Below, one piece after another: positions 17,580 through 58,323 of a stretch of DNA of 64,000 bases; the stretch's first letter is position 1; every line of letters starts with the position of its first letter. Source of the DNA: a virus (lineage: Duplodnaviria > Heunggongvirae > Uroviricota > Caudoviricetes); the IMG/VR virus record IMGVR_UViG_2675903278_000002. One strand, written 5' to 3'. The notes beneath the pieces are model-generated. The model saw only the letters and a program-made list of their open reading frames with translations, searched no databases and was not told the DNA's origin. A program made the translations under genes and the position numbers.

Positions 17580-17654
17580 GATGGTGTAGCTCAGCGGTAG
17601 AGCAGTTGGCTGTTAACCAACTGGTCGGTGGTTCGAATCCACCCACCATCGCCA
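17580..17654 (+). tRNA. tRNA-Asn (anticodon GTT)
   Basis: Manual fold: 7 bp acceptor stem GATGGTG/CACCATC, D-arm TAGCTCAGCGGTAGAGC, anticodon loop CTGTTAA, T-loop GGTGGTTCGAATCCACC, 3' GCCA. Confidence 0.75.
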
Positions 17655-17656
17655 AT

Positions 17657-17732
17657 GCCGGTTTAGCTCAGTTGGTAGAGCGCCTGCCTTGTAAGCAGGA
17701 TGTCAGCGGTTCGATCCCGTTAACCGGCACCA
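17657..17732 (+). tRNA. tRNA-Thr (anticodon TGT)
   Basis: Manual fold: acceptor GCCGGTT/AACCGGC, D-arm TAGCTCAGTTGGTAGAGC, anticodon stem CCTGC/GCAGG with loop CTTGTAA, T-loop GGTTCGATCC, 3' ACCA. Confidence 0.75.
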
Positions 17733-18052
17733 ACACAACAGGTAAGAGCATTGGGCGAATCGGCGATACTGACCCACAAGCCCGTAAATCGATAGAGTCA
17801 GACCAGTGCTCTTACCGTTGTGAGGAAGTGCAGCTCTTTGAAGCAACCAGAAGATAAGCATCTGGCTTCACAACACAACGATAAGATCATTACGGTTAAT
17901 CGTCGTTCATGTGCACAATGACTGGTCGAAAGGTAGTGATCTTACCGTTGTGATGAATGCACAGGCTGATGTGCCGCAACTACAGTAGTGCGCGCTTTGC
18001 GGGGCTTGCTACAACCCTGTGTCGGAGTTCAGCACCGACCATCACAATAGCT

Positions 18053-18139
18053 GGAGAGTAGGGAGCATGGTGCTCAAGCGGTCTTGAAATCCGTCCCATT
18101 GTGCAAACGATGATGGTTCGATTCCATTACTCTCCGCCA
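18053..18139 (+). tRNA. Class II tRNA with long variable arm, most likely tRNA-Ser (anticodon TGA); anticodon stem imperfect
   Basis: Acceptor GGAGAGT/ACTCTCC, T-loop GGTTCGATTCC, 3' GCCA, long variable region; anticodon loop CTTGAAA only with a mismatched closing pair. Confidence 0.55.
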
Positions 18140-30232: not shown

Positions 30233-30503
30233 AGAATTATGGCGCTTGTTGAGGAAGTCACTCCTCTTACGCACTTTGTTTTGCCATGCCGGCAGTTAGC
30301 TTCTGCCTTTGACTATTCATGCGGCAACCCCGCATTTCGCCACAATGGGCAATTCACTTTTATGGAATAAACTGGCCGTTGTGTCGATTTAATTAGCATG
30401 GCCTTACCATGCTAATTTATTCAACTTGTACAATCCTGCAAATCTATCCACTCAGGCTTACACCGTCTTCGTTATTGTAGAAATGAGGATCATCAGCGTT
30501 GAA

Positions 30504-30719
30504 TCAGCTTAGAGCAACGACATTTGCTGCTGCTGGGCCTTTAGCCCCATTCTCGATAGAGAATTCGACCTGCTGGCCTTCTTCCAAAGTGCGGAAATTA
30601 TTACTCTGAATTGCCGAAAAATGTACAAAAACATCTTTACTGCCATCAGCAGGAGAAATAAAGCCAAAGCCTTTATCAGAGTTAAACCATTTTACTAAAC
30701 CAGTCATTTTATTAGACAT
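30504..30719 (-). CDS. cspA: Cold-shock protein (CspA family)
   Basis: [21 protein letters not shown]... RNP1-like motif; 71 aa from the internal ATG at 30719. Confidence 0.85.
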
Positions 30720-31048
30720 AGATATTACCTTCTTAATTTTGTGAGCCACATAGTGCGGCGAGAATTTGATCTGTATAGATTGGGACTTACTTAGGCACTT
30801 AAGGAGGAGACTCACGAAGAAGGGAAATCAGAAGATAACACTGAACTGAGACTGCTTTACTAAAACTGCTTACATAAGGTCTGTCTTGCAAACCAACGAT
30901 GCTATTAACGCATACCCCTTCTTTTCATGCAACCTTTATTTTTCAAAGATAACTAATTTTTGTCACCATTGGTTTAGTAAACGTTAACGAACCAGACGAT
31001 GCCAGACACCTTTACAGAGAACAGATGCCCGCCAATTGGCGGGCATCA

Positions 31049-35001: not shown

Positions 35002-36075
35002 ATGGCAAAAGGAAAATCCGCACTGGCACTTGCTCTGAAAAAGAAAATCGGTAGCAACGACGAAATTCAGAAAGTAACTCATTGGATTGATACAGGCTTT
35101 CCACCGTTAAACAAAGCTATTTCTGGTCGTTACGATGGCGGCTTCCCATGTGGTCGTATCGTCGAAGTATTCGGTCCTCCAAGTGCAGGGAAAACGTTCC
35201 TTGCAACAGCAGCGATGATCTCCGCTCAAAAACAAGATGGTCTGGCGGTATTCCTCGATCATGAAAACAGTTTTGACGTTGGCCTGGCTGTAGCCAATGG
35301 CCTGAACGCAGATGAGGATGACGGTCAGTGGGTATACAAGCAGCCAGATACCTTCGAAGACTCTGTAGAGTTGATCGGCACAATACTTAAATTGGTTCGT
35401 GATGAAGAGCTTATCCCCGAATCAGCACCTATCTGTATCGTGGCTGACTCTCTTGCGTCTATGGTTCCGAACTCCAAAGCCGAGAAGTTCGAAAAGATGG
35501 CTGAAGGCACTGCCAAAGACAAAGATCAGCTAAACATGAACGACAATACGGCACTGGCTCGTGCGACGAGTGCGAACTTCCCTACTCTGGCTTTGTGGGC
35601 ACGCAAATACAACGCCTGCATCATCTTCTTGAATCAGGTTCGCACAAAAATCGGTGTAATGTTTGGCGACCCTACTACGTCGCCAGGTGGAGATTCACCG
35701 AAGTTCTACGCTTCTGTACGTATCCGTCTTGGTGCATCGGTGATGAAGGATGGTAAAGAGAAGATCGGCCAGGACGTAGGCGCAGAATGCATCAAAAACA
35801 AAGTTGCACCACCGTATGGCAAATGCACCTGGAAATTCTACTTCGATCCTACTCGTGGCCTCGACGTTATCGAATCGCTCGTCGAGTACATGCTGGAAGA
35901 AGGATACCTGCCAAAGAACGCCAGCGGGCGAGTTGAAATTGGTGACAAGAAATACACCAAATCGCAGATCGTTGAGATGTATCGGGAGAAGCCACTGGCT
36001 GAAATCATTGCGGCTTTGCAGGCAATCGACGACCGAAGAGCAAAAGACAACCCCACCGAGTCAGTAGAAGAGTAA
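35002..36075 (+). CDS. RecA-family recombinase (RecA/UvsX-like)
   Basis: Walker A GPPSAGKTFLA and RecA-like core; 357 aa. Confidence 0.8.
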   Translation: MAKGKSALALALKKKIGSNDEIQKVTHWIDTGFPPLNKAISGRYDGGFPCGRIVEVFGPPSAGKTFLATAAMISAQKQDGLAVFLDHENSFDVGLAVANGLNADEDDGQWVYKQPDTFEDSVELIGTILKLVRDEELIPESAPICIVADSLASMVPNSKAEKFEKMAEGTAKDKDQLNMNDNTALARATSANFPTLALWARKYNACIIFLNQVRTKIGVMFGDPTTSPGGDSPKFYASVRIRLGASVMKDGKEKIGQDVGAECIKNKVAPPYGKCTWKFYFDPTRGLDVIESLVEYMLEEGYLPKNASGRVEIGDKKYTKSQIVEMYREKPLAEIIAALQAIDDRRAKDNPTESVEE

Positions 36076-39302: not shown

Positions 39303-40358
39303 CTATTTGCGAGTCTTTGCCTTGCGCAACTCTTCGAGAAGCGCCAGTTCTTCTTTACTCAACATGACCATTTTGCCTTCTTTTTCGTCAGGCACAACGT
39401 CGATAATGTCATCTTGATTCTCATCTGGGAGGCTATATTCCGTCTCATCATTATCGATTTTTGTTGATATTTGTGCCTGGCGTAACTTTGGCCGCCTATA
39501 GTGGATGACGAAGTAGACCGAGTTTCCGCGCTTAACTTCCGTGTAATCGAGATATCCTATCTCTCGCAGCTGTTCCATAGCCTTTCTTACCGTCGCATTC
39601 TGAGTAATAGTGCGACTTGTCAGATTAAGTCTGGCGCGTAAACGGGCTAGTGATATTGGTGCCGGATCAGGCGGCAAACTTTCAATAAAAGTATAAAGCG
39701 CCTGAGCGGATTCTTTTCTTGAGAGTTCGTTTATAGCCCGGAGTTGCAGAAGAACCTTTTTGTCGAACTGGTAGAGTTCGAAAATCTTGGGATCTGCTTT
39801 CAGTTCGACCGTATCGTGCTTGACACTATATTTTGCCGTTTGCACAAGATGCGTTACGTAAAACTCATCAGAGCCTTTGCTACGGAACGAGATGGTATTT
39901 GTGGCAATACGGCTTAGCGAACTGTCCAGGCGTTTGCGTAACTTCGCTGATGACCTGGCGGTCGGAATGCCACACAGCCTTACAAACTCAACGAACGGCA
40001 ACGTGACAGTATCGCCAACGACCTTGTGTTTGGCAAACGCGTGGATTATTCCCACCCACGTTTTAAAGTCGTTATCCATATCAAGCCGAAGGCCAGAGAT
40101 CCTTATGTCTTCGTACCCTTCGGCTTTTGCCAGAGACAGCTGTTTGAGTTCAGCAGAGGCATCCATAGAGACCATTTGCCCCTTTCTTCCTCTGGATGTC
40201 GATTTCAGCGTCGGAACGAAGAGGCCCAGACGCATCAAAGCAACAGGCTGAACAGTGTTATTAGTGTTAGGAACCAACGTAACAACTTCGCCTGTCTTTT
40301 TATCTGTTTCTGAAAATGCTTCAACGATCGCTATGTTTTTATTGCCGTTTTCGCTCAT
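39303..40358 (-). CDS. repA: Iteron-binding plasmid replication initiator (RepA-like)
   Basis: 351 aa ORF flanked on both sides by iteron arrays, with DnaA boxes and an AT-rich stretch upstream. Confidence 0.75.
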
Positions 40359-42000: not shown

Positions 42001-43086
42001 ATGACTTTGCCATACGGCGTCATTTCTGACTGCCACTACCACAAATGGGATGCGTTCTCCACGACGAACGCTGAGGGGCTTAACTCCAGACTTGAAATAC
42101 AGTTGGAAGCAACGAAAGAAGCAGCCATCGCCATGAAGAAGGCCGGTTGTAAGTACATGTTGGTTGCCGGTGATACATTTCACGTCCGAGGAACTGTGTC
42201 CCCTTCTGTTTTGCATTACGTAACTGAAACGTACAAGTGGATTATCAACGAGCTTGATCTGACAGTAGTAATGCTGGCCGGTAATCACGATCTTGAAACC
42301 AACGATTCAGTATATAGCGCCAACGCAGCAGCATCGCTGAGTTCTATCGGCGTGGTAATCGTATGTGGCAAGCGCCCACACTCAATAAAAATTGGTGATG
42401 TGACTGTCCACCTGATTAGCTGGCGTAACAATCATGCGGAGCTTATCAGCGATCTGAAAGCATTACGTAAGAGCGTAGAAGGTGATAATCATGACGTTGT
42501 TATCCATACATCCATTAACAAAGCCATTCCAACAATGCCTGACGTCGGTATCGATGCGCAGGAGTTAAAGGATATCGGCTTTCGTCTCGTGCTTAGTGGG
42601 CATTACCACAACCACAAAGAGGTCATTCCTGGAGTTATCAGTGTCGGTGCACTGACTCATCAAAATTGGGGAGATGTTGGATCTCTGGCTGGCTACATGA
42701 TCGTAAACCCGGACGGCAGTTTCAGTCACTACGAAACCAGTGCGCCTAAATTCATTAACCTGGAAGATGATGTTGCTGATGACCAAATTCGCGGCAACTA
42801 CGTGCGTTTCCGCGCCGTAATTGAGAACGATGAAGAAGGCATTAAGTACCAGAACATCCTCAAAACAATGGGTGCAAAAGGTGTCGTGTGCAACTTCATC
42901 CGTAAGTCATCAATGATGGAAGGTACAGCCAGCACAACTGAAACCAGCAAAATCGATAGCCTGGGAGAGTCGGTATCTGCTTATTGCAAGATTGTCCACG
43001 ATACTGACGGCGGATTTGATCTGAGCAAATTGGATATTTTGTGTCAGGAAATCCTCACCGAAGCGGAGAGTTCGGAGGCTGTGTGA
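42001..43086 (+). CDS. sbcD: SbcD/Mre11-like nuclease (calcineurin-like phosphoesterase)
   Basis: Metallophosphatase motifs GVISDCHYH, LVAGDTFH, MLAGNHD; followed by the SbcC-like ATPase gene. Confidence 0.8.
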   Translation: MTLPYGVISDCHYHKWDAFSTTNAEGLNSRLEIQLEATKEAAIAMKKAGCKYMLVAGDTFHVRGTVSPSVLHYVTETYKWIINELDLTVVMLAGNHDLETNDSVYSANAAASLSSIGVVIVCGKRPHSIKIGDVTVHLISWRNNHAELISDLKALRKSVEGDNHDVVIHTSINKAIPTMPDVGIDAQELKDIGFRLVLSGHYHNHKEVIPGVISVGALTHQNWGDVGSLAGYMIVNPDGSFSHYETSAPKFINLEDDVADDQIRGNYVRFRAVIENDEEGIKYQNILKTMGAKGVVCNFIRKSSMMEGTASTTETSKIDSLGESVSAYCKIVHDTDGGFDLSKLDILCQEILTEAESSEAV

Positions 43087-43315
43087 AGCAAAGTCGTTAT
43101 GGGAGCTTTCGAGACTTTGCCATCACGATGAAAAGACTTGAACGAGGCCAGACGGTGATGTTTCACAAGCCCTACCCGCCACAAGGAAATCCCGTAGCGT
43201 TTTATCTTGGAAGGTTAACAAGAAAAGGCGTATTGAGGCGCAGATCCTTCCCGGCGCATACGGAGTTCAGATTGAAAGAAGGCCAAAAGCTAACACGCGG
43301 TATCAGAGGTGTTAT

Positions 43316-45232
43316 ATGAAGTTTTTAAAGCTCCAGGTTGAGAATTTTATGGCTATCGCCAGCGCGGAGGTCGAGTTAGATCAGCGTGGTTTAGTGCTTA
43401 TTCAGGGTGTTAATAGTGATGATAGTTCCGCATCAAGTAATGGCTCTGGAAAGTCAACTCTAATGAATAGCCTGATGTGGTGTCTTTATGGCGAAACAGC
43501 TCATGGTGTGAAGGGTGACGATGTGTTGTCTACCGACCATGAAAAGAACTGTCGTGTTGCAGTAACCATCGAGGATGAAGGCAAGAGATACGCAATCATT
43601 CGTCACCGTAAACACAAAGAGTTCAAAAATCGTCTTATCGTTCGTGGTGAAGATGGCGATATGACGAAAGGCAAAGATGCGCTGACGCAGGAGTTCGTCG
43701 AGCGTCTGATCGGTGCATCTAAAGAGGTTTTCATGGCTTCCATCTATGCGAGCCAAGAAGCTATGCCAGATTTACCTGGAATGTCCGACAAAAACCTCAA
43801 AACCATCGTAGAAGAAGCCGCTGGCGTTGACAGACTGACACGCGCCTACGCTATTGCTCGTGAGCGAGCTAATGCAGCTGCCGCACGTATGGATGTGGTT
43901 AAAACCAAATTGGAGTCGACAATCTCGACCATTGAGGCAACACAGTCAGAAATTGAGTCAGCGAAAGCCTCCTCTGAATCATGGGAGCAAGAGCGTTCTA
44001 AACGTTATGACGATGCCCTGGCTGGGCTGGCCAGTGCCGAAGTTGAGTTAACGGAAGTTGAACTTGAGATCCGCACTCTTCCCGAACAGATACGTGATAC
44101 CGAGAAGGCAATCGAAAGTGAGCGCAAAAAGTTAGCCTCAAAAGAAGAACATGACGCCAAGTTGCTCAAAGTTCGTGGTGCGATAACTGATATTCGGGCA
44201 AGCATCAAAGCTACAGAAAATAGTCAGGCTGATGCAATGAACCGCGCGCGTAATTTTAAGACCAAAGCAGAAGAGGTTGGTACTAAAGTGGGATCACCAT
44301 GCCCTACTTGTGGCAAAGCCTACTGCGAAGAAGATCTATCAACGGTGAAGGAGAGTTTCATTGAACAAGCACGTCAGGAAATTGGTCAGGCGAAGACACT
44401 TGCAGAGGCAATGGCTAAACACAAAACGAATCTTGAGAAAGCGTTAAGCATTGAGTCTGCCCTTGTTAAAACGACACCTGATGTAACGGCTATCATTGCC
44501 CGGATTGAAGAGCTTACGAAACAACTCTCATCTTTGCGTCATCGTGAGAAGGAGGTTGTTGCTATTGAGTCTCTTGTGACTCGTGCTCGTACTGAGGTCG
44601 ATCGTATATCAAAAGAGATTAATCCGTTTATTGCTCTTATCGCCAGACACGAAGATAACTTGGTATCCAGTAAGTCTACCTTCAAGTCCTTAAAAGATGA
44701 GTCGAAGGCTATTCAGGAACAAACGTTGCTATTGGAAAAAGCTCGTCAGGTCTACTCTCCTGCCGGGGTGCGTTCTCATATTTTGACGTCTGTTACGCCT
44801 TTCCTGAATACACGCACTGCCGAGTATCTCAATACGTTGTCTGACGGGAATATTACTGCTGAGTGGTCGACGATGGATGTCACTAAAAAAGGTGAGTATC
44901 GCGACAAATTCAACATTAGTGTGCAGAAGAAAGGTTCAAGTAAGTCGTTCCAGACCCTCTCTGGTGGTGAGAAGCGGAAGGTTCGCATTGCGTGTTCTTT
45001 GGCATTGCAGGATCTGGTTAGTAACCGGGCGAGTAAAAACATCGATTTGTTTATCGGCGACGAAATTGACGATGCACTCGATACAGCCGGTCTTGAACGC
45101 CTCATGGGTATTCTGGAGTCCAAAGCTCGCGAGCGAGGTACTGTGCTGATTATCTCCCATAAAGAGATGAAGTCATGGTTCCGGGAAACTATTACGCTGG
45201 AAGTTAAAGAGGGGCGCAGCTATGTCGTTTAA
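43316..45232 (+). CDS. sbcC: SbcC/Rad50-like ATPase
   Basis: N-terminal Walker A GSGKSTLMNS, central coiled coil with CPTC zinc hook, C-terminal signature LSGGEKRKV and D-loop. Confidence 0.85.
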   Translation: MKFLKLQVENFMAIASAEVELDQRGLVLIQGVNSDDSSASSNGSGKSTLMNSLMWCLYGETAHGVKGDDVLSTDHEKNCRVAVTIEDEGKRYAIIRHRKHKEFKNRLIVRGEDGDMTKGKDALTQEFVERLIGASKEVFMASIYASQEAMPDLPGMSDKNLKTIVEEAAGVDRLTRAYAIARERANAAAARMDVVKTKLESTISTIEATQSEIESAKASSESWEQERSKRYDDALAGLASAEVELTEVELEIRTLPEQIRDTEKAIESERKKLASKEEHDAKLLKVRGAITDIRASIKATENSQADAMNRARNFKTKAEEVGTKVGSPCPTCGKAYCEEDLSTVKESFIEQARQEIGQAKTLAEAMAKHKTNLEKALSIESALVKTTPDVTAIIARIEELTKQLSSLRHREKEVVAIESLVTRARTEVDRISKEINPFIALIARHEDNLVSSKSTFKSLKDESKAIQEQTLLLEKARQVYSPAGVRSHILTSVTPFLNTRTAEYLNTLSDGNITAEWSTMDVTKKGEYRDKFNISVQKKGSSKSFQTLSGGEKRKVRIACSLALQDLVSNRASKNIDLFIGDEIDDALDTAGLERLMGILESKARERGTVLIISHKEMKSWFRETITLEVKEGRSYVV

Positions 45233-56135: not shown

Positions 56136-56729
56136 ATGATTGCAGCCGAAAAAATCAAACAGCGAAAGCGCGACAACTCTCTTCGTGACCTCTGGAGAAC
56201 ACCTGACTGGCTGTTTTCTGCCATTCAACGTTATCTTGGAGTGACATTTGATGTTGACGTTGCCTGCAACAAGGACAATGCAAAGCTGCCTAATTTCATA
56301 GGCGTTGAGCGTGATGCTTTGAAATCTGAATGGGGACAGCCAGGTACAATTGCCTTCCTCAATCCACCCTACTCCAAAATCTCCCCCTGGATTGATGCGG
56401 CTATACGTGAGCAGGCTCGCGGAGTTACAACAGTGATGCTAATTCCTCAATCCCTAGATACAAAGTGGTATGAGCGTGCAACAGAGTGTGCGAATGAGAC
56501 GATTATTCTGTCTGGTGGCCGCGTAGCGTTTGTCGAGCCTGACGTCAATCTGGGTCAGGTAGAAGTAAACATCAACCCAGGTGGCAGTATGCTCGTTGTT
56601 TTTCGAGGATTCTGTCAGGACGCTGGGCACTCTATAAGCAAGATCCCTTTGGACGTCATGAAAAGTCTGGGAGGGTATGATCCTGCGAATGTGATCAGGA
56701 AAAAAAGACCATCAAAGAAGGCTGCTTAG
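56136..56729 (+). CDS. Phage-type DNA N6-adenine methyltransferase (orphan, Dam-like)
   Basis: WRTPDWLF N-terminal motif and catalytic NPPYS; 197 aa. Confidence 0.7.
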   Translation: MIAAEKIKQRKRDNSLRDLWRTPDWLFSAIQRYLGVTFDVDVACNKDNAKLPNFIGVERDALKSEWGQPGTIAFLNPPYSKISPWIDAAIREQARGVTTVMLIPQSLDTKWYERATECANETIILSGGRVAFVEPDVNLGQVEVNINPGGSMLVVFRGFCQDAGHSISKIPLDVMKSLGGYDPANVIRKKRPSKKAA

Positions 56730-56750
56730 TTTGTTCTGGCGTCTGTAATT

Positions 56751-56815
56751 AGCCTGCTTCTGTATATATAAATAACTACATATTAATTATTAATATACGG
56801 AAGCAGGCTGTTTTG
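56751..56815. terminator. Long hairpin (approx 17 bp stem AGCCTGCTTCTGTATAT / ATATACGGAAGCAGGCT, AT-rich loop) followed by GTTTTG; second copy of the element at 9723..9789
   Basis: Read directly downstream of the methyltransferase stop. Confidence 0.45.
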
Positions 56816-56890
56816 TATCAGAGACTCCAGACCTGAACATCACTACAGAATCCACTAGAACCCCTTCCCAGACGCTTTAAAATCGATTTT

Positions 56891-57145
56891 ATGAATCACT
56901 TTAAGGAAACTAACATGTCATACCCGACTAATGTCGTTGCGCTCGTAGAGAGCGATTTTCTGGCCCAGGCCCGTGAAATGATGAAAGATCGCGAGCAGGC
57001 TTTCAACTTGTACGAATGGGCAATTAAGTGCTTGCATCTTGGGGAGCATCGCGAACTTGTTGAACAGCTTTTAGGTGAGTTGATTAACGAGGTGTTTGCC
57101 TTGAATGTTCAACTACATGGTCGAGAAAATAATCAATCGAAATGA
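56891..57145 (+). CDS. Hypothetical protein
   Basis: 84 aa ORF. Confidence 0.4.
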   Translation: MNHFKETNMSYPTNVVALVESDFLAQAREMMKDREQAFNLYEWAIKCLHLGEHRELVEQLLGELINEVFALNVQLHGRENNQSK

Positions 57146-57179
57146 TAGATAAGTACAAACTATTCATAAAGTGAATTGT

Positions 57180-57700
57180 AAGTGCTAAGATCTGATAGTT
57201 TCCAGTCGTAGACTGGAGACTCGACCTGATGGGTGGGGGTAAGCGTCACTGGCGTCAGGTTTAAAAAAGCTCACTACCAGCGTAGAACCGGTGCCGTTTA
57301 GGTGTCGGGGAAGGGGGAACCAAAGTGAGCGGAGACAAGGGTCACTTTATGATTGTCGAGTCTGGGGTGTTTCGAGAGGTTGAATCCAGTACTCCCCTTC
57401 ATAAAGTGTGGGAAGATCTCGGTTCTGGGGTGCTGTCATCCATAACTTCCCAAGTCTAAGCTGGCAGTAGACTTAGGCCATAACTTTTCAGGTTATGAAA
57501 CGACCAGGTTGGTGAGGGATTTTTATACTCACCTCCCTGGGAGAGTATTACCTGAAAAGACAACCTCTCACTTCGTTCGAGGTGAACTTCACTCACTTCG
57601 TTCGTTCAGTTCAGGTTTATAAAAACCTGTTCTGGGAAGTAATTTGTTTATTTTAATAATTATTAACACGCACGCGTGTGCGCACGCGCGAGGAAAAAAA
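57180..57700 (+). ncRNA. Structured non-coding region (candidate ncRNA or secondary/lytic origin); strand unassigned
   Basis: About 500 bp without a credible ORF; nested inverted repeats (CTTTTCAGGTTA...TACCTGAAAAG; GGTGAG...CTCACC), direct repeats TCACTCACTTCGTTCG x2, alternating purine-pyrimidine tract CACGCACGCGTGTGCGCACGCGCG. Confidence 0.25.
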
Positions 57701-57729
57701 TCGGCGCGGCGCTTGATTCAGGAGTTTAT

Positions 57730-58323
57730 ATGACGACGAAGACACCAGCCCGATCGCAAGAAAAAACTCGCAAAAAAGCCAAAAACAAAAATTCTCCCCG
57801 CACCAATTCCACAACGCCTGTCGTAGAGTTCAATCCCCAGCTTAAAACCGTGAAAATCTTCAGTGATGGCTCTTGCCTTAAAAATCCGGGTGGCCCGGGC
57901 GGTTACGGTATAGTTCTCCAGTATCGTGGTGAGGAACGCGAGTTCTCAGATGGTTTTCATAGCACCACCAATAACCGCATGGAGATGATGGGGGCACTTA
58001 TCGGGCTGGAGCGTTTGAAATATCCATGCAACGTTATTTTGCACTCTGATAGCCAGTATCTGAAAAACGGCATGACACAGTGGATGAAATGGTGGAAACG
58101 CAATGGATGGGTGACTTCTGACAAAAAACCGGTAAAGAATGTTGATCTGTGGAAGCGTCTGGATGAGGCTGCAAGTCGACATAATGTTCGCTGGAAGTGG
58201 GTTAAAGGTCACGCCGGGCATCGTGAAAATGAAATATGTGATCGACTCGCGAAGATCGCAGCTTTTTCCGCAGCAGATATGCCTCACAAGAAAGATATTG
58301 GTTTTGTTTACAACAAGCAGTAA
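57730..58323 (+). CDS. rnhA: Ribonuclease HI
   Basis: RNase H motifs [43 protein letters not shown]; AGGAG RBS before ATG 57730; basic N-terminal extension. Confidence 0.85.

Follow-up and report, generated by a model that had tools for sequence, protein, structure and literature searches.

A widespread, folded RNA element next to the RNase HI gene of SSU5-like phage-plasmids

The region ahead of rnhA

The window analysed here is a 64,000-nucleotide (nt) stretch of viral DNA (IMG/VR record IMGVR_UViG_2675903278_000002; Caudoviricetes) that belongs to an Escherichia coli SSU5-like phage-plasmid. We focused our attention on the non-coding region that precedes its RNase HI gene, rnhA, and that an original prediction, made from the letters alone, had described as a structured region with nested hairpins, repeats and a CG/CA tract. 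This region measures ~585 bp (57146-57729) and lies between the gene for a 76-amino-acid (aa) protein and rnhA, within a nucleotide-metabolism and replication module that encodes a ribonucleotide reductase, MazG, ThyX, a polynucleotide kinase, DHFR, an exonuclease and Dam. Around the locus, 1.8 kb of sequence is 98-100% identical to E. coli relatives (PhiR41_1, the LF82 phage Cyrano and numerous plasmids) and 78-81% identical to Salmonella phage SSU5 and Klebsiella phage-plasmids. The locus contains the following features (type A is our name for the RNA of the window).

56915..57145, + strand: gene for a small three-helix protein, 76 aa, phrog_5343
57163..57191, + strand: predicted sigma-70 promoter, with -35 TTCATA at 57163-57168, a 17-nt spacer and -10 TAAGAT at 57186-57191
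57222..57645, + strand: conserved core of the type A RNA
57567-57579 and 57592-57604, + strand: direct repeat CTCACTTCGTTCG, two exact 13-nt copies
57666..57712, strand not applicable: alternating tract, followed by AGG and A7 (57691-57700) and a GC-rich arm (57701-57712)
57730..58323, + strand: RNase HI gene (rnhA), Pfam RNase_H, 152 bits

The predicted hairpins, repeats and CG/CA tract are all present where they had been placed, apart from the arrangement of the repeats. The outer stem of the nested hairpin, CTTTTCAGGTTAT / ATTACCTGAAAAG, joins 57484-57496 with 57547-57559 (13 nt, 92% complementary) and encloses the inner hairpin CCAGG..GGTGAG / CTCACC..CCTGG (57504-57516 with 57528-57540). 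The alternating tract, ACACGCACGCGTGTGCGCACGCGCG, is a 25-nt perfect alternation of purine and pyrimidine at 57666-57690. The repeat CTCACTTCGTTCG does occur as two exact copies; these are 25 nt apart and not in tandem as proposed, and Tandem Repeats Finder reported no tandem repeats in 57100-57800. Likewise, the structured region of about 500 bp is real, but the conserved unit within it runs from ~57197 to 57645, and the CG/CA tract is a separate, less conserved feature that sits between the RNA and the rnhA ribosome-binding site. The claim that there is no credible open reading frame also held, as no frame is open for more than 58 codons and no open frame is common to the lineages.

Conservation is highest in the part that lacks coding capacity. 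From position 75 of the intergenic query onward, blastn matches are 88-93% identical, versus ~78-81% for the surrounding genes. In a sliding comparison of 23 distinct relatives, pairwise column identity is 0.89-0.99 over 57250-57600 versus 0.72-0.87 in most windows of the flanking genes, and drops to 0.68 around the CG/CA tract. The conserved core (57222-57645) is kept across Escherichia, Salmonella, Klebsiella, Enterobacter, Citrobacter and Cronobacter relatives. Its variable columns (21.5%) have no 3-periodicity (p 0.96), whereas dam, the small-protein gene and rnhA have 41-48% variable columns with a strong third-position excess (p 1e-9 to 1e-26). The comparative check that could have revealed a conserved protein-coding frame found none shared between lineages and no codon periodicity, and the check for conservation in relatives found the nucleotide sequence of the RNA core to be better conserved and under tighter constraint than the protein genes on either side.

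The element is widespread. We found 687 PLSDB plasmids that match the 585-bp intergenic query (blastn), from hosts that include Klebsiella, Escherichia, Enterobacter, Salmonella, Citrobacter and Cronobacter, and it is present in 232 of 5426 complete E. coli genomes. Among the matches listed, 30 RefSeq E. coli records carry no annotated feature at the RNA match. Two annotations elsewhere do reach into the region and are probably mis-calls: a 44-codon hypothetical coding sequence inside the RNA in Cyrano (CYRAN_81; L001 6627-6761), and the RNase H coding sequence of SSU5 (SSU5_090; L002 6844-7608), whose start lies ~170 nt too early, inside P13/P14 (see below). In one phage-plasmid, NZ_CP020118.1 (L365 2594-5885), the intergenic copy is 100% identical to that of the window; this element carries unusual cargo, namely apbC and a full methionyl-tRNA synthetase gene, metG, and has an IS1 in the tail-fibre region.

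Fold, compensatory changes and transcription signals of the type A RNA

The + strand of the region folds with a minimum free energy z-score of -5.9 relative to dinucleotide shuffles, and RNAalifold predicts 128 pairs in about 17 helices from 37 distinct sequences. In this alignment 99.7% of cells are paired and 51 cells are changed on both sides; the same count is 11.8 in shuffles (0 of 500 reach 51) and 0-4 when the partners are slid. A second count, on eight sequences over P7-P11, found 8 doubly changed pairs versus 2.1 in shuffles (0 of 500) and 1-2 with slid partners. At least 14 G-U pairs occur on the + strand, and the conserved ones would be C-A mismatches on the opposite strand, which places the RNA on the + strand. 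The helices are arranged as follows, all on the + strand.

57197..57221: P0, a 5'-terminal hairpin, AGTTTCCAGTC / GACTGGAGACT
57223-38 with 57244-61: P1
57269-57330: P2-P4 domain
57332-42 with 57563-69: long-range closing helix, which encloses P7-P14
57343-57408: P7-P9
57409-57452: P10-P11
57416..57445: internal loop and hairpin in P10 (AUCUCGGUUCU ... CCAUAAC, with P11)
57454-57478: P12
57484..57559: P13 (outer) and P14 (inner), the nested hairpin of the original prediction
57570-57640: 3' domain
57607..57660: 3' hairpin (57607-57634, covarying stem), conserved motif and U-rich tail

Because close relatives vary little, we sought divergent homologues by way of the neighbouring small protein. 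This recovered the RNA in two metagenome contigs, L207 (profile score 347 bits) and L205 (52 bits), which, when folded independently, adopt the same architecture for most helices. By our own reading of these sequences and of the Morganella homologue described next, stems are rewritten and still pair. In L205, the outer P1 stem is altered at 6 of 8 pairs and remains paired, P7 is altered at 5 of 10 pairs, and P11, P12, P13 and P14 are essentially rewritten. L207 has lost one C-G pair from P13 on both strands of the stem, has gained one A-U pair in the CCAGG/CCUGG stem, again on both strands, and has replaced a G-C with an A-U pair in P14. A covariance model of P7-P12 then detected a new homologue in a Morganella morganii phage-plasmid (57.5 bits, E value ~1e-11) and matched nothing in unrelated viral contigs totalling 750 kb. 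The Morganella P10 reads AUGAGAG/CUCUCAU where the other sequences have UGGGAAG/CUUCCCA, i.e., 4 of 7 pairs are rewritten in a helix that is invariant elsewhere, and the internal loop AUCUCGNUUC...CCAUAAC is unchanged. Since the loop is kept where its stem is rewritten, AUCUCGGUUC/CCAUAAC is a candidate functional site.

The two ends of the RNA can be placed provisionally. P0 differs in sequence in every lineage and always pairs, a pattern expected of a 5' protective stem-loop. After the 3' hairpin comes a near-universal UCUGGGAAG (UCUGGGAAC in L207) and then a U-rich tail, and we take 57607-57660 as the likely 3' end. Comparison of three lineages puts each CTCACTTCGTTCG copy in or near the loop of a hairpin with a covarying stem, with CUUCG as the common loop motif; RNAalifold instead pairs CGAGGUGA with the second CTCACTTCGTTCG copy, so that two alternative pairings of this region are possible. 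Two imperfect direct repeats also lie within the RNA, TCGAGTCTGGGGTG (57356-57369) / TCGGTTCTGGGGTG (57419-57432) and CCATAACTTCCCAAGT (57440-57455) / CCATAACTTTTCAGGT (57478-57493), and UGGGAAG is present twice (57409 and 57634), which suggests internal duplication or further alternative pairings.

Pattern scans with GGGAAGA/TGTGGGAAGA..(T)AACTTCCCAAG of viral, genome and metagenome collections returned close relatives and one truncated remnant. The remnant, in Buttiauxella gaviniae ATCC 51604 (L302 4835-5164), is a 5'-truncated type A copy covering profile positions 101-429, joined upstream to unrelated, apparently coding sequence and followed by a shortened CG tract; the part examined has no rnhA, and the copy looks rearranged. 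A gapped repeat pattern, TCACTTCG..TCACTTCG, proved non-specific in viral contigs, and its loci later served as negative controls.

Upstream of P0, the predicted promoter has a TG at 57183-57184 in its spacer, and an upstream TG is often present in relatives. A -10 element with T1, A2 and T6 is kept in 12 of 12 lineages, as read by eye. The promoter of the window itself scores 8/12, one match short of the scan threshold; the scan does call a promoter at the equivalent position of SSU5 (TTTAAA-17-TAAAAT with TG), of L205 and of the type B locus L202 described below (TTTACT-17-TATGAT). From this promoter, the predicted transcript start is ~57197-57199, which coincides with P0. No canonical terminator was found after the type A RNA in the window. 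The only promoter-like site on the minus strand, at 57204..57175, points away from the RNA and lies upstream of its start.

A palindrome lies at or just ahead of the promoter. It occurs at many places in the element, as listed here.

57146..57164 of the window, strand not applicable: one copy of the palindrome (ATAG)GTAAGTACTTAC(CTAT), here in the degenerate form ATAAGTACAAAC at 57149-57160
4283, 9868, 16814, 22532, 32596, 36120, 41873, 46557, 51132, 56109, 57149 and 63294 of the window: 12-nt cores of the palindrome
212, 6410, 7605 and 11879 of the SSU5 locus (L002): 12-nt cores of the palindrome

The palindrome has 22 matches in the window versus 2.8 expected, with about a dozen intergenic sites, and 9 in the SSU5 locus versus 0.25 expected. 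The copy at the RNA lies just upstream of the -35 or overlaps it, and in L205 and in type B the right half of the palindrome is the -35. The palindrome probably serves as operator for a regulator of the whole element, or else as an intercistronic RNA hairpin or processing site, and we know of no earlier description of it. The shared sites suggest that a palindrome-binding factor may co-regulate the RNA with other early genes, those of nucleotide metabolism and replication.

Between the RNA and rnhA, an alternating tract of 15-29 nt is kept in every examined type A lineage, with variable sequence and length. The RNA of 57666-57712 can be folded as a GC hairpin with an A-rich loop. L205 and L207 both retain a GCGCG-AGG-(N)-A5-7 motif beside an AT-rich spacer.

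A second RNA type and the RNase H-fold neighbour

In all Enterobacteriaceae SSU5-like phage-plasmid loci examined, the 76-aa gene (found in 728 plasmids) precedes the slot that holds the RNA. In ~30 Klebsiella plasmids this slot is filled, at exactly the position of type A, by a different non-coding sequence of ~435 nt, which we named type B. Types A and B have no detectable similarity to each other (nhmmer in both directions, Smith-Waterman against shuffles, and the P7-P12 covariance model). Type B nonetheless has the same promoter and 5' hairpin as type A, and five type B sequences contain 12 compensatory pairs. It ends in an A-tract, a hairpin and U7-8, which we read as an intrinsic terminator. 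Three lineages that keep an RNA of either type carry an adjoining RNase H-fold gene that is intact as an open reading frame and has lost catalytic residues. The loci are listed here.

L202:3278-3715: type B RNA of Klebsiella oxytoca pCAV1099-111; type B is also in L203 and L360-L362
L208:3261-3620: divergent type B RNA
L202:3808-4368: catalytically dead RNase H-fold gene beside the K. oxytoca type B RNA (D10N, D70S)
L208:3939-4463: catalytically dead gene, the first of two RNase H paralogues in L208 (D10S, E48R, D134I)
L366:8988-9545, minus strand: catalytically dead gene beside the Morganella type A RNA (D10A, E48S, D134R)

The types have moved between lineages. The small protein of the divergent type B contigs is 74% identical to that of the window versus 66% for the type A contig L205, an order that implies exchange of types A and B between lineages, and neither the phylogeny nor the sequence of the small protein tracks RNA type. 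The original prediction had offered a recombination hotspot as one possibility; this is borne out only in the sense that an RNA cassette has been exchanged. In three Morganellaceae relatives (Moellerella, Morganella, Xenorhabdus), the small gene is followed by other cargo, namely a subunit of a type I restriction system, toxin-antitoxin genes or unknown open reading frames. Morganella also has the type A RNA close by, together with an RNase H-fold gene, in an inverted module.

An RNase H-fold gene lies downstream of type A in every example found. In the window it encodes an RNase HI with a lysine-rich N-terminal extension of ~37 aa and with D10, E48, D70, H124 and D134 all intact, and it matches solved E. 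coli-type RNase HI structures (best E value 1e-65). In L208, a dead and an intact RNase H paralogue stand in tandem. The dead neighbours argue against a purely enzymatic, primer-removing role and for a binding role. In two type B plasmids (L360 and L362), rnhA is replaced by a convergent 147-aa gene and the RNA is kept, which indicates that the RNA is not just a leader of rnhA. We also considered the small protein as a Rop-like RNA binder and set this aside: it has no Pfam match, no fold match in the PDB and no co-variation with RNA type, and its AlphaFold model has three helices (predicted local distance difference test score 79).

Elsewhere in the window, the plasmid replicon is marked by one feature, 17 kb from the RNA locus.

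39303-40355, minus strand: gene for a Rep3-family initiator, RepA

Near it are a RecA-like gene (35002-36072) and SbcC/SbcD-like genes (42001-45229). At 30479-30897 on the minus strand, the cspA thermoregulator (Rfam RF01766) is matched over its full length (186 bits), and thus the phage-plasmid carries a cold-shock protein gene with an RNA thermosensor leader. Three tRNA genes (Asn-GTT, Thr-TGT and Ser-TGA) are clustered at 17580-18139.

Candidate roles and relation to known RNAs

The locus carries a constrained, folded, + strand element with its own predicted promoter. Among the roles that the original prediction had proposed, a phage non-coding RNA is strongly supported by the conservation, the lack of codon periodicity, the compensatory changes, the strand-specific G-U pairs and the promoter. 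We consider type A very probably a functional structured RNA gene. On balance, we read 57197-57645 (+ strand) as the gene for a highly structured non-coding RNA of ~450 nt that is linked to an RNase H-fold protein, a fuller statement that we favour by a modest degree. That this link takes the form of an RNA-protein complex with that protein is a more tentative proposal, less likely than not, which we favour mainly because three lineages have a neighbouring RNase H without its catalytic residues. We suggest that transcription from its own promoter would yield a separate, stable RNA, under shared control with the genes of nucleotide metabolism and replication, and that this RNA would bind a protein by means of its fold and of the invariant nucleotides in its loops and junctions, and would not act by antisense pairing. 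The likeliest partner would be the adjacent RNase H-fold protein, because it travels with the RNA even in the inverted Morganella module and is dead in three lineages; the RNA may recruit, regulate or be bound by this protein during replication or during conflict between elements. That such a complex is dedicated to phage-plasmids, with types A and B as interchangeable alternative specificities, is a speculative extension to which we give rather less credence.

Several observations count against this reading. The transcript start, the 3' end and the stability of the RNA are all deduced from sequence, and a type A RNA that lacks a canonical terminator could be the 5' part of the rnhA operon transcript. 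Kinship among the sequences inflates the shuffle-based covariation statistics, and much of the 3' half is invariant in close relatives, so that helices there rest on few divergent homologues. The RNase H of the window is by sequence a normal-looking, active enzyme, 60% identical to the catalytic domain of E. coli RnhA. Finally, two type B plasmids keep the RNA without any RNase H-fold gene, and a strict partnership of RNA and RNase H is therefore neither universal nor obligatory.

The RNA appears to be undescribed. The Rfam/Infernal scan that had been suggested as a check found no known RNA family at the locus: with Rfam 15, whose families include ROOL, GOLLD, HEARO, OLE, raiA, RNAI, C4, tmRNA, RNase P and the group I/II introns, the whole window gave only cspA and two tRNAs, all elsewhere, at gathering thresholds, and 56700-58000 gave only weak microRNA-type chance matches, far below threshold, at E values up to 10. 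The type B loci had no match either, also at permissive thresholds; ARAGORN found no tRNA or tmRNA in the region; and the phage-plasmid and RNA-discovery literature, searched in full text and including papers from the Breaker laboratory, yielded no prior description.

In kind, by analogy, type A is nearest to ROOL and GOLLD; in layout, it is nearest to ColE1 RNA II and to type III toxin-antitoxin loci. Like ROOL and GOLLD, it is a multi-junction RNA of several hundred nt in a temperate phage genome, in what would be its own transcription unit, and kept by its fold and a few invariant loops over long sequence identity. Unlike them, it has no match in sequence or structure to either family in Rfam 15, does not stand beside tRNA genes and is tied to small-protein and RNase H-fold genes. 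ROOL and GOLLD hosts are Firmicutes or Bacteroidota, and the hosts of type A are Enterobacterales. ColE1 RNA II shares with type A a folded length of ~450-550 nt, its own promoter, RNase H as the obvious processing enzyme, a purine-rich A-run downstream and alternative types that could set compatibility, but here we found no RNA I-like antisense gene, a Rep3 initiator lies elsewhere, a terminator-like hairpin follows type B, and RNase H is inactive or absent in some carriers. The order of promoter, structured RNA, terminator and nuclease-fold protein recalls ToxIN, CptIN and TenpIN, from which the locus differs in having no tandem array and in encoding an RNase HI fold instead of a ToxN-family endoribonuclease. 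When looked for, the defining features of ROOL/GOLLD and of type III toxin-antitoxin systems were absent, and so, of those of ColE1 RNA II, were an RNA I-like antisense gene and a constant association with active RNase H. What the locus does have is the general mark of a structured non-coding RNA: helices kept by compensatory changes in excess of controls.

We weighed other explanations against this one. The RNA might be a cis-acting leader, i.e., a long 5' untranslated region that controls the rnhA operon by attenuation, processing or processive antitermination, perhaps in the manner of HK022 put or the EAR element. Type A lacks a canonical terminator before rnhA, so that read-through into rnhA is likely in the window; all downstream genes are co-directional, a GC hairpin stands just ahead of the rnhA ribosome-binding site, the CTCACTTCGTTCG repeat and the duplicated UGGGAAG permit mutually exclusive pairings, and the terminator-like hairpin of type B is what an antiterminator would have to pass. 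This suggestion of the original prediction is nevertheless weakened by type B, which ends in that hairpin and is kept in the two plasmids where a convergent gene replaces rnhA. Moreover, ~450 nt and a multi-junction fold are far beyond known leaders of such a kind, conservation falls off steeply past 57645, ahead of the rnhA start region, and that region itself varies between lineages; both the leader and its put- or EAR-like form seem to us unlikely. Less probable again is a primer RNA of a lytic origin (ColE1 RNA II- or T4 ori-like), which would pair with the DNA as an R-loop at the GC-rich polypurine stretch and, once cut by the adjacent RNase H, prime synthesis. The case for the secondary origin and primer processing originally proposed is circumstantial: the RNA lies within the replication module and adjoins RNase H, it contains G-rich runs, an AT-rich spacer is followed by the GC-rich alternating tract and GAGG-A7, both kept in L205 and L207, and incompatibility determinants might be expected to come, like this RNA, in alternative types at a single locus. 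Yet the plasmid replicon is the Rep3 repA 17 kb away, cumulative GC skew does not turn at the locus, the 5' part has no antisense promoter, and neither RNAI nor another Rfam family matches. Type B has no GC tract, ends in a terminator-like hairpin and U-tract and occurs without RNase H, and the enzyme is dead in three RNA-keeping lineages, where host RNase HI could substitute.

A role in conflict, as a defence, anti-defence or addiction determinant (a nuclease decoy or a type III-like RNA antitoxin), is plausible given the variable slot, which in Morganellaceae holds the restriction, toxin-antitoxin and unknown genes noted above. The swapping of types A and B relative to the tree of the flanking gene and the type III-like gene order are in its favour; the two 13-nt copies do not make a tandem repeat array, the downstream protein is of the ordinary RNase HI fold and is not a ToxN, AbiQ, CptN or TenpN endoribonuclease, and we hold this account to be about as improbable as the lytic origin. 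We regard as very improbable an immunity or incompatibility antisense RNA that pairs with the downstream operon through a repeated loop motif. The P1 c4, P4 CI and N15 CA RNAs are, like type A, non-coding RNAs that head an operon of a plasmid-prophage, carry a repeated short motif and vary between lineages, and an anti-repressor or Rha-type gene (ant/rha) lies 1-2 kb downstream in SSU5 and in type B plasmids. However, those RNAs are 70-80 nt long, about a sixth of the ~450 nt of type A, and pair with targets on the same transcript, whereas the type A element has no convincing complementary target. Complements of the repeat (12-13-mers with <=2 mismatches) occur at two isolated, chance-level sites (0.43 expected), complementary matches stayed at chance level when 12-mers from the full RNA were compared with the ~111-kb element, RNAduplex energies with downstream start regions are average by a crude method that allows long loops, and the Rfam C4 family does not match. 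Least credible of all is that no RNA is involved and that the region is a DNA-level element (a protein-binding array, a recombination site or Z-DNA) or a small protein gene that went unnoticed. The alternating tract is prone to form Z-DNA, and the Cyrano and SSU5 annotations place coding sequence in the region, but the frames are unconserved, the variable columns lack periodicity, and compensatory changes with strand-specific G-U pairs are not expected of a duplex DNA site. A CsrB-like sponge was also considered and rejected, as GGA motifs are not enriched in the RNA.

Type A is thus best described as a widespread, apparently undescribed large structured RNA gene. To our knowledge, large, intricately folded bacterial RNAs are rare, and every studied class (RNase P, tmRNA, OLE, ROOL and GOLLD) is mechanistically unusual. 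The RNA resides in elements of ~4% of completely sequenced E. coli, of Salmonella Typhi (pHCM2) and of many clinical Klebsiella and Enterobacter plasmids, some with resistance genes, and for this reason it is genetically easy to study in model hosts. No other stretch nearby is so well conserved, which implies that the RNA does something important for the phage-plasmid. A second, unrelated RNA in the same slot and the dead RNase H partners point to biology overlooked by current annotation pipelines. Should the proposed partnership with the RNase H-fold protein prove true, phage replication, or the conflict between elements that share a cell, would involve an RNA-protein machine of a new kind.

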